Program-made: the position numbers and the translations under genes
The notes under the pieces: model-generated
Seen by the model: only the letters and a program-made list of their open reading frames with translations
Databases searched by the model: none
Told to the model about the DNA's origin: nothing
Shown: positions 36,996 to 40,442 of the stretch, in pieces
Position numbering within the stretch: position 1 is the first letter of the stretch
Layout: the number at the start of each line of letters is the position of its first letter
NCBI GenBank assembly: GCA_040235515.1
Contig: JBECKX010000143.1
Location: 1-48,120, forward strand
Length of the DNA stretch: 48,120 nt
Direction: 5' to 3'
Source of the DNA: Candidatus Zixiibacteriota bacterium
Lineage (GTDB): Bacteria > Zixibacteria > MSB-5A5 > CAIYYT01

Positions 36996-37024
36996 AGATT
37001 ACGAAAATTGCCTGATTGTGTCAA
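36996..37024 (-). promoter_or_regulatory. Sigma70 promoter of the partner-switching operon
   Basis: Minus strand TTGACA-17-TAATCT. Confidence 0.7.
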
Positions 37025-37065
37025 TTAAATAAGGGGGAGAGGGGTAGTGTCCTAATTTGACGCTT

Positions 37066-37743
37066 TTACATCCAAACTGACGGACGAGAAATCGTAAATT
37101 CATCAGAAGCTCTAATGATGTCATTAGGAAGCTGACACTGGCGAAACTGTTTTTCTTCAACGAGTAGATACTTAAATGACGAATCTGCCAATTCCTTACT
37201 CCAGCGCCCAGGCGGCATTGCTACTATCACCCTCTTGTCAGTAAAGAGTTCCTTAACCTTCTGAATTGGGCTTCGCAGATCGCTATCACCAGAGACAACA
37301 ATTGCCGTACCAAATTTGTCAAAGAACGCATCTACTAGAAGGTCTGTAGCCAGATTCACGTCTGTCATTTTTTCGATTGGATGGTTGCTGATTTTCCCGC
37401 AGTGTCTACACTCATATGGTTTGAATTGATATTGACCAAAAGAGATAGTAAGGTTTGTCTTGTATTGGTTACTGTTTTCGGCTAACGCCTCAAGATAGGC
37501 GTTTTGGCGAGCTGCTTTGGCTTTCTGCCTTCCTGTATCGCCAATTCTACTTGTGAAGTATCGAACAGCATCTATCATGCCGTCAGCTTGTATAAACTGT
37601 TGGGATTTAGCCTTTTGTAACAATTTGATTGAGAATCGCCATACATCAAGCCAGTAATATTTTCGCCATCCACTTTCCTTCATCGAAAAATAGACGTTGA
37701 ATCCGTCTATATAAACCCTGATCCGATTATTGTCTGGAAACAT
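37066..37743 (-). CDS. NYN domain (PIN-fold) protein
   Basis: YIDGFN, EKMTDVNLA, VSGDSD, CxxC. Confidence 0.92.
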   Translation of the reverse strand: MFPDNNRIRVYIDGFNVYFSMKESGWRKYYWLDVWRFSIKLLQKAKSQQFIQADGMIDAVRYFTSRIGDTGRQKAKAARQNAYLEALAENSNQYKTNLTISFGQYQFKPYECRHCGKISNHPIEKMTDVNLATDLLVDAFFDKFGTAIVVSGDSDLRSPIQKVKELFTDKRVIVAMPPGRWSKELADSSFKYLLVEEKQFRQCQLPNDIIRASDEFTISRPSVWM

Positions 37744-37819
37744 TTACTTATGTCCTTTGTTATACAATTGGTTGTAAAAAACTTATTGACAAGCTAAAGA
37801 ATAGGATATTAATTGACGA

Positions 37820-37903
37820 TGTAGGACATAGGATACATCCCCGAAGATCGCATCTTCGGGCTTAACGCCTAGTATCTTCACTGATTCTAGGCGTTTTTCT
37901 TTT
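37820..37903 (+). ncRNA. Candidate sRNA divergent from the NYN gene
   Basis: TTGACA at 37786 (weak -10); hairpin 37840-37860; terminator 37864-37903 with T-tract on + strand only. Confidence 0.4.
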
Positions 37904-38723
37904 ATATGTTGTCTAATAGCAATTCCTCCAGTCCCCATATCCTGTTAGAAATTCCAGCCGCCATAGCGGGCGTTATTCTGAGTGTGTTATGAATTCGACA
38001 GAAGTTGTAGTATGCAAAGTGCAGAGCGATAGCTGATCTGAGATTCTCCAGCTTCTTACTGAAGGCGTTTGTTAGCCTTGTCATACGGCGTATTGACATC
38101 CGCCTGGTCAGATTGTTGCGCTCAATGTAGCTCGTGGTAACATGATCTGGGTTTGGCTTGCCCCAACGAATTTGCTTACTCACGGAAGTAACCTTTGGCG
38201 GGCCATACCTACCCGGGTCGATCGGCTCCGCTTCGTACGATTTTACAATTTGAGCAGAATCGACATTTGCGCCAAATGCTATGTCAATGGCGTCCACGTA
38301 GGCCTTTAGCTTGTCGGTTGAAATCTGGACGCGATTATTCAGCCGCTCGGATAGATCACCAACAAAGTCAACAGCGGTTTCAACCGTTCGTTTCCCAACC
38401 CTGTAAGTCGGGATTACCTTGGTGTCAGCATCCAGAGCGACAAAAGTCCAGAAATCGCTCTTCTCGGCTGGATCATCGTCCTTTCTTAGATGGCGTTGCT
38501 TTTTACCAACGTAGCACCAAATCTCATCAAGCTGGAGCCGTTGACAGGTGAGATTAGTCATTTCGGCATCCATAATCTGCTCGCAGTTAGAGCCAACGCG
38601 ATTGAGTAAGCGCATAACTGTGTCTCTGTGGACGCTTGTGATTCGCTCAGTAGCCCTGATTGAATTGCCGTCAACGAGACAGCGAATAACCGCTTCCTGC
38701 TTGGCTAATTTCAACTTATTCAT
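37902..38723 (-). CDS. IS1 family DDE transposase
   Basis: HTH (SIRATERIT.VHRDTV), LDEIW, ISTD, IERNN..R; single ORF. Confidence 0.92.
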   Translation of the reverse strand: MNKLKLAKQEAVIRCLVDGNSIRATERITSVHRDTVMRLLNRVGSNCEQIMDAEMTNLTCQRLQLDEIWCYVGKKQRHLRKDDDPAEKSDFWTFVALDADTKVIPTYRVGKRTVETAVDFVGDLSERLNNRVQISTDKLKAYVDAIDIAFGANVDSAQIVKSYEAEPIDPGRYGPPKVTSVSKQIRWGKPNPDHVTTSYIERNNLTRRMSIRRMTRLTNAFSKKLENLRSAIALHFAYYNFCRIHNTLRITPAMAAGISNRIWGLEELLLDNI

Positions 38724-38757
38724 TGACACCAATCCTCCGATAAGGTATTATAAACAC

Positions 38758-38861
38758 TGGACGGCAGGGGTATCGAGCCCCTCAGGATCGAATGTAAACT
38801 CCGCTCTGGCAACCATTGCGCCGCCCAAGCTTGGCCCTCGTCTAGTCACGAGGGCTTTTTT
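38758..38861 (+). ncRNA. Candidate antisense sRNA over the transposase leader
   Basis: TTGACA(38723)-17-TATTAT(38746); terminator GCCCTCGT/ACGAGGGC-T6 (38834-38861); no ORF inside. Confidence 0.6.
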
Positions 38862-38871
38862 CTTCTGACCT

Positions 38872-38982
38872 TATATATACTACTCAACCCCCCTTGTCAA
38901 TAAAAAAAGGAATAGACGGCGCCATAAAAATATCGTTTTATGGCAGTTTGTTATTGACACTCTGTTGTGGTGCGCATATCTT
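38872..38982. promoter_or_regulatory. Divergent promoters with central palindrome
   Basis: Minus TTGACA(38900)-17-TATATA; plus TTGACA(38954)-17-TATCTT; GCCATAAAA/TTTTATGGC at 38921-38944. Confidence 0.65.
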
Positions 38983-39006
38983 CATGCTAAGCTTAAGGAG
39001 TTTACG

Positions 39007-39840
39007 ATGAATCAAGAAGTTGAGAAATCACAGAAGAAACGCAGGATCAAACAAAGAAGCCCGAACTATCCTTCGATCGACTTAGAGAAAGCGCTTGAAT
39101 ACGCCAAATTGCAGTACGATTCTGACGGTATGCAGGGTATTCCAGTTAACATCGCCCATGGTCGATGGGGATTCAAGCCCGGCGGGAGCCACGGTGATCT
39201 AATGTTGGCTGCCATCAAGGCATTTGGTCTAGTTGAGGTCGAAGGATCCGGGAGCAAACGCCAAGTGAGAATTACCGAGCTTGCCCGCAAAATTATATTG
39301 GATCATGAAGACAAGCAGTCCCTCCTGCAGGACGCTGCACTAATGCCTAAGATTCACAAGGTAATCTGGGAACACTACGGCGGAGATATACCAAGAGATG
39401 ACGTTTTGCGACATTTTCTTATATTCGATTTGAACTTTAACGATAAGGCTGTGGACGGGTTTATTTCTCAATTTCGCGACACTATTTCATTTGCGAATGT
39501 TGAATCTCTCAGTATCTTGAATAAGAAGAGGAGCATTTTTGGCCAGCCAGTATTTCCCAAGCCGAAAAATGAGGAAGGGACTGGTGGACTAGAAAGTGAA
39601 GACAGAGTTAAGTCAGGTAAGGAGCCAAATTTTGGCTCGGAGATCGAGAAGAAAATGCAGGAGTTGAAAGAGAAGCCGGGCCTAAGCGATGTTAAGTTTA
39701 ATCTCCCCAGCGGCAAAGCCACTTTGTTTCATCCTGAGACTATGACCGCAGAGGACTTTGAAGTCTTTGACATCTACTGGCAGGGATTTAAGAAATCGTA
39801 CCAATTATCGAAGGGGAAGCCAAAAGAGAATGAAGAATGA
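39007..39840 (+). CDS. Hypothetical passenger protein, possible winged-helix N-terminus
   Basis: AAGGAG RBS before ATG 39007; AAIKAFGLV..ITELA wHTH-like segment. Confidence 0.75.
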   Translation: MNQEVEKSQKKRRIKQRSPNYPSIDLEKALEYAKLQYDSDGMQGIPVNIAHGRWGFKPGGSHGDLMLAAIKAFGLVEVEGSGSKRQVRITELARKIILDHEDKQSLLQDAALMPKIHKVIWEHYGGDIPRDDVLRHFLIFDLNFNDKAVDGFISQFRDTISFANVESLSILNKKRSIFGQPVFPKPKNEEGTGGLESEDRVKSGKEPNFGSEIEKKMQELKEKPGLSDVKFNLPSGKATLFHPETMTAEDFEVFDIYWQGFKKSYQLSKGKPKENEE

Positions 39841-40123
39841 CTTAGCGTCGTTTATTGAACATCTCCATAGATGCAAAGCAATTCACTTCGAGGATGTTGA
39901 AGTCAATGAGGAGTTTGACGGTCAAACCGTTTGGAGTGGCGTAGTCTCAGTATTCAAAATCAATGGGCACCCGAAAGCTGACACCTGCTACGGGTGGTCG
40001 TCTCCAATTGAAGGCTCCGACAAACGCAAGTTTTACGCGATCCTCAAGCTTCCCCCAGTTCAATCCCCCAGCGATGCAGTCAAGGCAGCAATAGCAAGCG
40101 AGTATAAATCCAAAAACAAGTAA
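39830..40123 (+). CDS. Hypothetical passenger protein (97 aa)
   Basis: ATG overlaps the upstream gene end; globular composition. Confidence 0.7.
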   Translation: MKNDLASFIEHLHRCKAIHFEDVEVNEEFDGQTVWSGVVSVFKINGHPKADTCYGWSSPIEGSDKRKFYAILKLPPVQSPSDAVKAAIASEYKSKNK

Positions 40124-40136
40124 AGGTGGTAAGGTA

Positions 40137-40361
40137 GTGGGTAGGTTTGGAAAGACTCTAGCAGTATTCGCCATTGGCCTGATTCTGATTGCTATGGTGC
40201 TGCTTTGGTTTCAGAAGGACAGGTATGAGGTCGTTGTATCCAGCGAATCTGACTACACCTATGTAATCAAGATTGATAAGAATACAGGGCGTGTCTGGTC
40301 TTGGGCTCGAGGATCATACGTCGATAATCCTGGCTGGTCTCTCATTAAGGAGCGAAATTAG
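40137..40361 (+). CDS. Small membrane-anchored passenger protein
   Basis: AAGG RBS, one N-terminal TM; stop codon lies inside the right TIR. Confidence 0.65.
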   Translation: MGRFGKTLAVFAIGLILIAMVLLWFQKDRYEVVVSSESDYTYVIKIDKNTGRVWSWARGSYVDNPGWSLIKERN

Positions 40362-40442
40362 GACACTACCAGGGGGAGAGGGGGGTAACCGGGCGGGTTT
40401 GAAGCGGGGAGTGTCTCCTCGACGCCCCGCTTGAGCCTGTCC

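Follow-up and report, generated by a model that had tools for sequence, protein, structure and literature searches.

The IS1-family element and its genes

The window analysed here, a stretch of 48,120 nucleotides from a Candidatus Zixiibacteriota bacterium, contains a low-G+C element of 3328 bp with 16-bp inverted ends on both sides. Its DDE transposase (PF03400, over the cut-off), inverted repeats and target duplication place it in the IS1 family. The features that delimit the element and its genes are listed below.

37032..37042: left target-site duplication, 11 bp, identical to 40371-40381
37043..37058: terminal inverted repeat, 16 bp, IS1-type, begins GGTAGTG, 100% complementary to 40355-40370
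37066..37743, minus strand: passenger NYN-domain RNase, HEC-09-like (Pfam PF01936, E 4e-11; PADLOC HEC-09, E 1.5e-65)
37902..38723, minus strand: single-ORF IS1-family transposase, ATG at 38723 (PF03400, 35 bits, cut-off 24.1)
38954..38982, plus strand: divergent promoter of the passenger genes, 10/12
39007..39840, plus strand: passenger ORF of 277 aa (ORF277), matching no family, common in related elements (homologue searches)
39830..40123, plus strand: passenger ORF of 97 aa, matching no family, common in related elements (homologue searches)
40137..40361, plus strand: passenger ORF of 74 aa with a hydrophobic N-terminus, matching no family (ORF list, profile search)
40355..40370: other terminal inverted repeat, 16-bp perfect partner of 37043-37058
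40371..40381: right target-site duplication, 11 bp, identical to the left copy

The best match of the transposase was NF033558, at 65 bits and under its cut-off of 100, and the gene is present in one copy in the genome. In a genome of the same genus the match to the flanking DNA ended at 37037, where the contig of that genome ends. A hairpin of 13 bp lies at 37864-37895, directly past the transposase stop and ahead of the NYN gene, and tandem TTGAC sites of the latter are found at 37785-37835. Inverted repeats of 13 bp at 38895-38959 hold both divergent -35 boxes and enclose a hairpin (38921-38944), an arrangement that is a possible operator.

IS1 elements of this type belong to what we take to be the ISMhu11 subgroup. 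Other IS1-family elements with passengers share with this one the DDE_Tnp_IS1 domain, 16-bp inverted ends starting with GG and duplications of 8-11 bp, and the passenger genes vary between elements. Among 76 ORFs carried by related elements, toxin-antitoxin-like passengers were represented by Panacea (4) and NYN (3) proteins, and ORF277 fell into unnamed clusters of the protein atlas, matching no family. NYN RNases that match the candidate defence protein HEC-09 were also present in L084, L086 and L247; the accessible text of the source paper (10.1101/2024.01.29.577857) records no protection by the HEC-09 candidate.

A compact tRNA-like gene in the transposase leader

Between the transposase and its passengers on the opposite strand lies a tRNA-like gene flanked by signals of two convergent transcription units, whose features are as follows.

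38723..38751, plus strand: antisense promoter TTGACA-17-TATTAT, 11/12, predicted start at about 38758, at the tRNA discriminator
38734..38738, minus strand: Shine-Dalgarno GGAGG of the transposase, located by sequence in the antisense promoter spacer, outside the antisense RNA
38758..38826, minus strand: tRNA-like gene, 69 nt, in the transposase leader (covariation in 18 + 20 copies)
38758..38865, plus strand: predicted antisense RNA of about 105 nt, complementary to the whole tRNA, deduced from promoter and terminator
38793..38799, minus strand: anticodon loop GU-UUA-CA, 7 nt, with anticodon UUA at 38797-38795 in the stem register and UAC one base on
38833..38861, plus strand: intrinsic terminator of the antisense RNA, hairpin 38833-38856 with 9 pairs, then a T run
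38872..38900, minus strand: sense promoter TTGACA-17-TATATA for tRNA and transposase, perfect -35 (38900-38895), weaker -10 (38877-38872)

The acceptor stem of the tRNA-like gene has 7 bp, including G1-C72, G2-C71 and G3:U70, and the discriminator A73 is at 38758; these acceptor elements of tRNA-Ala are present, and the NGC anticodon is absent. The core is formed by a 3-bp D hairpin with GG, joined to the acceptor stem without a linker, and by a bulged anticodon helix of about 9 bp, with no variable loop. The T arm has 5 bp and a 7-nt loop, which begins with C, not T, in this copy, and CCA is unencoded. The gene thus departs from canonical tRNAs in the U8-R9 linker, the 4-bp D stem with its 7-10-nt loop, the 5-bp anticodon stem, the variable loop and the purine at position 37. 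As predicted from the sequence, this fold is a new compact tRNA architecture with neither linker nor variable loop.

ARAGORN made no tRNA call and Rfam gave no match at gathering score over the whole window, and the four weak Rfam matches obtained at E<=10 over 38400-39100 were all of terminator type. The first-pass annotation had likened the structure to known antisense regulators including phage P4 CI; in this search no family matched, C4-type RNAs included. It had also described a cloverleaf-like RNA on the plus strand. The stems that it named exist, but the cloverleaf was not confirmed as a plus-strand feature: the folding of 38757-38865 gave z -1.80 on the plus strand (12/200 shuffles as good) versus -3.01 on the minus strand (1/200 shuffles as good).

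Conservation of the tRNA class across loci

We gathered 198 transposase loci and searched 700 nt upstream of the transposases with a tRNA finder that demanded acceptor and T-arm pairing only. This gave 33 rows, of which 18 are sense-strand copies of the same build and 15 are second tRNAs or chance matches. In the alignment of the 18 copies, 92.9% of the cells were paired and 17 of the 22 pairs showed two-sided changes, extending to the D and anticodon helices, for which the finder had not selected. No shuffled alignment out of 500 reached this level of covariation, a type of control that kinship inflates. RNAalifold recovered the same fold unaided, except for part of the lower anticodon stem. 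Relaxed ARAGORN searches of the 198 loci were too noisy for counting.

A covariance model was built and then run on 151 genomes of the phylum of the window and on 151 in each of two others. In the first phylum, 20 matches of at least 46.9 bits were found in 19 of the 151 genomes, and ordinary tRNAs scored at most 45.1 bits. Among the matches inspected in the other two phyla (2 and 4 weak ones were left out), copies occurred in 3/151 genomes, one of which is the seed, and in 4/151; these were sorted by eye because ordinary tRNA-Val and tRNA-Lys scored 47-50 bits there. The 20 copies from outside the model had 95.4% of their cells paired and two-sided changes in 18 of 22 pairs, in an alignment fitted to the model. 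In viral contigs a strict tRNA motif pattern gave no matches, nor did the model in eight viral transposase loci.

Over all 38 copies, G3:U70 was kept in 35 and A73 in every one, with covariation in the neighbouring pairs, and the core measured 35-39 nt. The sense (minus) strand fold was the more stable in 37/38 copies, with a mean gain of 6.5 kcal/mol, and the conserved G.U pairs would become A.C mismatches if read on the plus strand. The homologue alignment therefore sustained the conserved structure expected by the first-pass annotation, although on the sense strand and as a tRNA, of which the cloverleaf is the mirror image. The same acceptor elements are present in tRNA-Ala and tmRNA of the host, most of whose tRNAs do not encode CCA, so that charging with alanine is plausible; several copies of the class do encode CCA. 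The conservation of these elements shows the alanine identity of the class, from which charging itself would follow.

The transposases of loci with this tRNA class are 38-90% identical. On the transposase tree the class occupied 21 of 192 tips and required 12 changes versus 20 when shuffled (midpoint root), which also means that the loci are kin and that locus counts overstate their independence. This distribution, clustered yet scattered, is as would be expected for a swappable cassette. Of 32 loci, 15 have the tRNA enclosed by a pair of inverted repeats; no such pair was found in the other 17, among which short loci are frequent. A second odd tRNA was seen in tandem at L172, L177, L178, L180, L184, L215, L221, L225 and L226; these have glycine-like bodies with U73 and C37 loops, or leucine-like bodies with UGC or UUA anticodons.

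Anticodons and reading register

In the register set by the stem, the 38 copies carry UUA (15), UUG (14), CUA (3) and six single anticodons, and no alanine anticodon. One base on, the triplets include UAC (15), UGC (10) and UGG (4), so that in the shifted register 10/38 copies would read with UGC, as plain alanine tRNAs. Four closing pairs form in 24/38 copies in the stem register versus 0/38 one base on, and a purine at position 37 is found in 10/38 versus 38/38, so that the common rules for anticodon loops suit the shifted register better. The stem register is tentatively favoured because of copies with an ordinary loop (L270, CU-CUA-AA) and of the stop-reading tRNAs of other scaffolds in related elements. 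Either register is non-alanine in the copy of the window, which would result in stop read-through or in alanine for valine. An 8-nt frameshift-suppressor loop was rejected, as all four pairs form in only 1/38 copies.

Position 37 is C in 28/38 copies, and this pyrimidine, together with the odd core, may block decoding. In the host, UAA ends 410 and UAG 691 of 1654 long ORFs. A host tRNA-Leu (G000:C209:3733-3819), called with the anticodon AAG, lies beside a tRNA-Leu(TAG); A34 is unusual in a bacterium.

The antisense unit follows the tRNA

The promoter TTGACA-17-TATTAT reported by the first-pass annotation at 38723-38751 is present (11/12) and recurs at the same place in homologues, as does the terminator that it placed at 38861. 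The promoter is the best of six promoter-like matches within 37000-40000, a number that is unremarkable because shuffling expects 5.2. Its overlap with the transposase start and ribosome-binding site, also claimed there, applies to the DNA and not to the RNA, whose predicted start near 38758 lies 35 nt ahead of the ATG and would leave the Shine-Dalgarno uncovered. The opposing promoter at 38900-38872 exists as well, but its -10 box is without the last T and it is absent from the list of promoter-like matches; consensus-like sense promoters were recognized by eye at the equivalent place in L001, L083, L170 and L195. The predicted sense/antisense duplex reaches -161 kcal/mol, whereas the separate folds come to -40 and -27. 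A second sense promoter-like site (38776-38747, minus strand, 10/12) covers the tRNA T loop, with a -10 box that overlaps the antisense -10; it could yield a short transposase mRNA and may simply result from the palindromic TATA.

When the best antisense promoter was sought in the 45 nt that follow the last tRNA, its -10 box sat 4-6 nt past the tRNA in 20 of 32 loci, a position from which the RNA would start at the tRNA 3' end. By a bracket rule with score and distance cut-offs chosen after seeing the data, the promoter was 3-9 nt past the last tRNA in 22/32 loci, the terminator preceded the tRNA in 24/32, both signals were found in 19/32 and one or both were missing in 13/32. The same rule applied to host tRNAs gave 5/46, 0/46 and 0/46 for promoter, terminator and both, respectively. 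The three copies with G3:C70 include none with both antisense signals by this rule, a hint that these signals may be lost along with G3:U70.

The layout of the window, with tRNA and transposase in one leader, is found in nine loci, the window included. In seven others a strong promoter of the transposase itself lies 81-122 nt further on, and the antisense unit is still with the tRNA. Seven tRNA loci have no transposase match and in four the transposase is truncated. In tandem cassettes the antisense promoter is shifted behind the second tRNA, and in L003 the tRNA and the antisense promoter precede another gene, a homologue of ORF277.

Other tRNA scaffolds and tRNA-free leaders

Acidobacteria IS1-family elements carry leucine-type CUA tRNAs (L013, L025, L039, L070 and L155) that have an ordinary loop and an encoded CCA and are labelled tRNA-Pyl by ARAGORN. 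These are, from their sequences, probable natural amber suppressors, and they have the terminator in 5/5 and the promoter in 4/5 cases. For UAU allo-type tRNAs the figures were 6/13 and 4/13, and for ordinary tRNAs outside the element ends antisense signals were found in 0/5. Allo-tRNAs and polycistronic irregular tRNAs of the Mukai type were seen inside or beside IS1-family elements at L157, L074 and, as UAU types, L010, L043, L051, L062, L066, L067 and L072, among others. At L157 a pair of the Mukai tRNA1 and tRNA2-UUA types adjoins such a transposase. IS1-family elements may be the vehicle of these irregular tRNAs.

An antisense promoter and terminator also precede 60 of 155 related transposases that are without this tRNA class, versus 2 of 250 random places, and some of these 60 leaders carry other odd tRNAs. 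The unit may thus be an older chassis for transposase control that receives tRNA insertions. Leaders with three arms and no tRNA occur in L009, L012, L029, L035, L046, L108, L150 and about 40 more loci. Their arms lie under the antisense RNA, in the promoter spacer and on the Shine-Dalgarno; the antisense signals enclose the first arm, the spacer arm pairs with it or with the Shine-Dalgarno, and the arms covary. In its modelled folding, this leader type looks like an antisense-driven translational attenuator.

Blocking the covered part made the start region less accessible, by prediction, in 8 of 47 tRNA-free leaders and more accessible in none, and it changed the predicted access to the ribosome-binding site in none of 8 tRNA-type leaders. 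The antisense control of an IS1 group proposed by the first-pass annotation has thus been upheld as to a conserved antisense unit, and the idea of transposase control probably holds for the tRNA-free sister layout. Occlusion of the start site in the manner of RNA-OUT is not the mechanism in tRNA-type leaders, because access is unchanged in all eight and, at loci with a separate transposase promoter, the unit is found with the tRNA. In the layout of the window, the shared antisense chassis appears to be aimed at the tRNA instead.

Comparison with known systems

Several known RNAs resemble parts of this locus. tRNA-Pyl combines a compact core with a stop-reading anticodon, as does the tRNA class described here (37-nt core), but PylRS (TIGR02367) was not found in the host genome (100% complete), the anticodon is UUA rather than CUA and the identity elements are those of alanine. 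The tRNA-like domain of tmRNA has G3:U70, A73 and a long helix by the T arm, like the class described here, which differs by having no mRNA-like part. The P4 CI and P1 C4 RNAs are processed from a sense transcript and act via short complementary boxes; they were rejected as relatives, there being no Rfam match at gathering score and the antisense RNA here having its own promoter.

Short cis-antisense RNAs complementary to the leader, from a promoter that faces the transposase promoter, are shared with IS10 RNA-OUT and IS200 art200 (PMC4513863, as far as accessible), and the sequence signals of a convergent promoter and a short terminated leader-antisense RNA are present here. In the accessible text, however, RNA-OUT and art200 block ribosome binding, art200 reaching into the first three codons (PMC4513863), whereas the RNA of the window would start 35 nt before the ATG and bracket the tRNA. 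Its pairing would not cover or close the ribosome-binding region (0/8 leaders with changed access), and an effect on a standby site is possible.

Among RNA-RNA pairs, the type VIII system SdsR/RyeA (PMC8610362, accessible part) has a toxin and an antitoxin that are both RNA and are made from the two strands of a single locus, an arrangement that the conserved signals predict here as well. SdsR, however, acts as a base-pairing sRNA, whereas the candidate toxin here would be a translation-acting tRNA on a transposon. Both partners are also RNA in CreTA, but there CreT acts by sequestering a tRNA, and its repression is by Cascade (PMC12737573, accessible part).

The allo-tRNAs and irregular tRNAs of Mukai et al. 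share with this class the uncoupling of identity from anticodon, UUA included, and some have G3:U70 (PMC5389517). According to the accessible part of that paper, irregular tRNAs adjoin toxin-antitoxin genes and a transposon protein, are seen in metatranscriptomes and in some cases are lethal when expressed; six UAU allo-tRNAs were assayed without suppression and two killed cells (PMC5389517). This account of irregular tRNAs is repeated in the accessible text of a review (PMC7609411), and in our set irregular tRNAs of this type are located within or next to related IS1-family elements (L002-L004, UAU types, L157). Membership of the class in the allo-tRNAs was rejected: it has no 8/4 or 9/3 acceptor branch but a 7/5 one with covariation, and no long variable arm or G73/U73 but A73 in 38/38 copies, a core of 35-39 nt and a 3-bp D hairpin. 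In the accessible list of Mukai et al. (PMC5389517) the loop strings TTTGCAC and TTTGGAC of the class are absent and TTTACA occurs twice, in other scaffolds, and the accessible supplement text contains neither 'antisense' nor 'promoter'.

tRNAProX tRNAs (PMC10404621, accessible part) are also natural tRNAs with the identity of one amino acid and the anticodon of another, and are toxic in E. coli; they differ by a canonical-type body and a neighbouring synthetase, and the accessible text makes no mention of 'transpos', 'mobile' or 'antisense'. Our literature searches, which covered a minority of the subscription papers, returned no description of a tRNA-antisense cassette as a passenger of an IS1 element.

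Proposed mechanism and alternatives

The reading that we prefer, and to which we give about an even chance, is that of a stop-reading or mistranslating tRNA that acts as a toxin and is kept in check by an antisense antitoxin encoded in cis, a type VIII-like RNA pair on an IS1-family transposon. Each of its steps, from the transcription of the two strands through tRNA processing, charging and decoding to toxicity and its rescue, is one that we infer from the sequence. The sense promoter at 38900 would produce a leader RNA holding the compact tRNA, which would be freed by RNase P, a 3' nuclease and the CCA-adding enzyme of the host and charged by the host alanyl-tRNA synthetase via G3:U70 and A73. 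The charged tRNA would insert alanine where the codon does not specify it, most probably by read-through of UAA/UAG with UUA; in the register one base on, valine codons would be affected instead. From the convergent promoter would come a short RNA, ended by the terminator, that anneals to the entire tRNA and blocks its maturation; the sense/antisense duplex would undergo decay of the RNase III type, and the two promoters would interfere. If the antisense supply failed, through loss of or damage to the element or through phage shut-off of host transcription, the more stable tRNA would corrupt translation, with addiction or abortive defence as the outcome. Any drop in transposase mRNA, which in the layout of the window is transcribed together with the tRNA, would be incidental. 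Natural mistranslating tRNAs are toxic in E. coli according to the accessible parts of two reports (PMC5389517; PMC10404621).

A wider proposal, that in several phyla the toxins of IS1-family transposons are tRNAs from a swappable stop-reading or miscoding set, each silenced by a cis-antisense RNA from the tRNA 3' end, is one that we advance tentatively. Equally tentative is the composition of that set, namely the compact alanine-accepting fold, leucine-type amber readers and allo-tRNAs.

Alternatively, the antisense RNA could mainly repress the transposase, through duplex decay, a lost ribosome standby site or promoter collision, with the tRNA as a passenger or as a tag for processing the mRNA 5' end. 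The antisense unit before 60/155 transposases without this tRNA class, the lowered access in 8/47 tRNA-free leaders (raised in none) and the leader shared by tRNA and transposase in nine loci, window included, agree with it. In the accessible text on IS200, moreover, the stretch of tnpA with which art200 pairs runs from -23 to -62 and thus lies ahead of the Shine-Dalgarno (PMC4513863), so that an uncovered Shine-Dalgarno is compatible with control. We nevertheless regard repression of the transposase as an unlikely main role, as access was unchanged in 8/8 tRNA-type leaders, the unit stays by the tRNA where the transposase is absent or self-promoted, and in L003 the tRNA and antisense promoter precede the ORF277 homologue. 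A processing tag would need neither an alanine identity nor a conserved anticodon loop.

That the tRNA is a charged, non-decoding mimic, with the antisense RNA as its off switch, seems to us quite improbable. Such a mimic could serve as bait or substrate for phage enzymes and for toxins that cut or modify tRNAs, could tie up alanyl-tRNA synthetase or EF-Tu, or could trigger the NYN RNase carried by the same element. The non-canonical core with C37 in 28/38 copies, the ambiguous anticodon register and the NYN and Panacea passengers speak for it, and irregular tRNAs that are charged yet unused in translation appear in the accessible part of Mukai et al. (PMC5389517). Against it, the anticodons cluster on UUA/CUA over three scaffolds, including ordinary CU-NNN-AA loops with an encoded CCA, and a mimic would have no fixed protein partner because the passengers vary among elements.

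There is little likelihood that the tRNA serves a regulated, useful recoding, with read-through of stops in genes of the element or mistranslation at times of stress, timed by the antisense RNA. The stop-reading anticodons would suit this, and the mistranslating tRNAProX raised carbenicillin tolerance in the accessible text (PMC10404621). The transposase stops of 26 tRNA loci (TGA 12, TAA 9, TAG 5), however, do not track the tRNA anticodon and no conserved extension follows them; no locus with in-frame transposase stops carries this tRNA class, and no in-frame stops were found in the passenger-gene matches. Avoidance of CAA/CAG or valine codons in transposases beside UUG or UUA tRNAs showed no difference, over few codons.

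A decayed tRNA acquired by chance, with coincidental promoter and terminator, would fit the scores under the ARAGORN and Rfam thresholds and the T loop that begins with C, but is hardly credible and largely refuted by covariation, given the compensatory changes in all helices, the invariant identity elements, the transposases as little as 38% (up to 90%) identical and the flanking signals absent from host tRNAs.

Biological significance

The locus probably represents, as far as its sequence can tell, a conserved new tRNA architecture within an RNA-RNA toxin-antitoxin cassette. If the toxin reading is true, the tRNA would be the poison of a selfish module, and the transposon could force its host into stop read-through or miscoding if production of the antidote did not continue. 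This would add a class of toxin-antitoxin systems in which the toxin is a tRNA, and would provide both a vehicle and a control for the orphan irregular tRNAs of Mukai et al. The question raised in 2017 about the role of irregular tRNAs near mobile elements and the survival of their hosts would become directly testable. A minimal tRNA that lacks both linker and variable loop would still be functional on the ribosome, and the 69-nt fold would be a natural alanine-accepting suppressor scaffold, useful for code expansion. Standard tRNA finders would be blind to this fold, and annotation would accordingly overlook a class of mobile tRNA genes.
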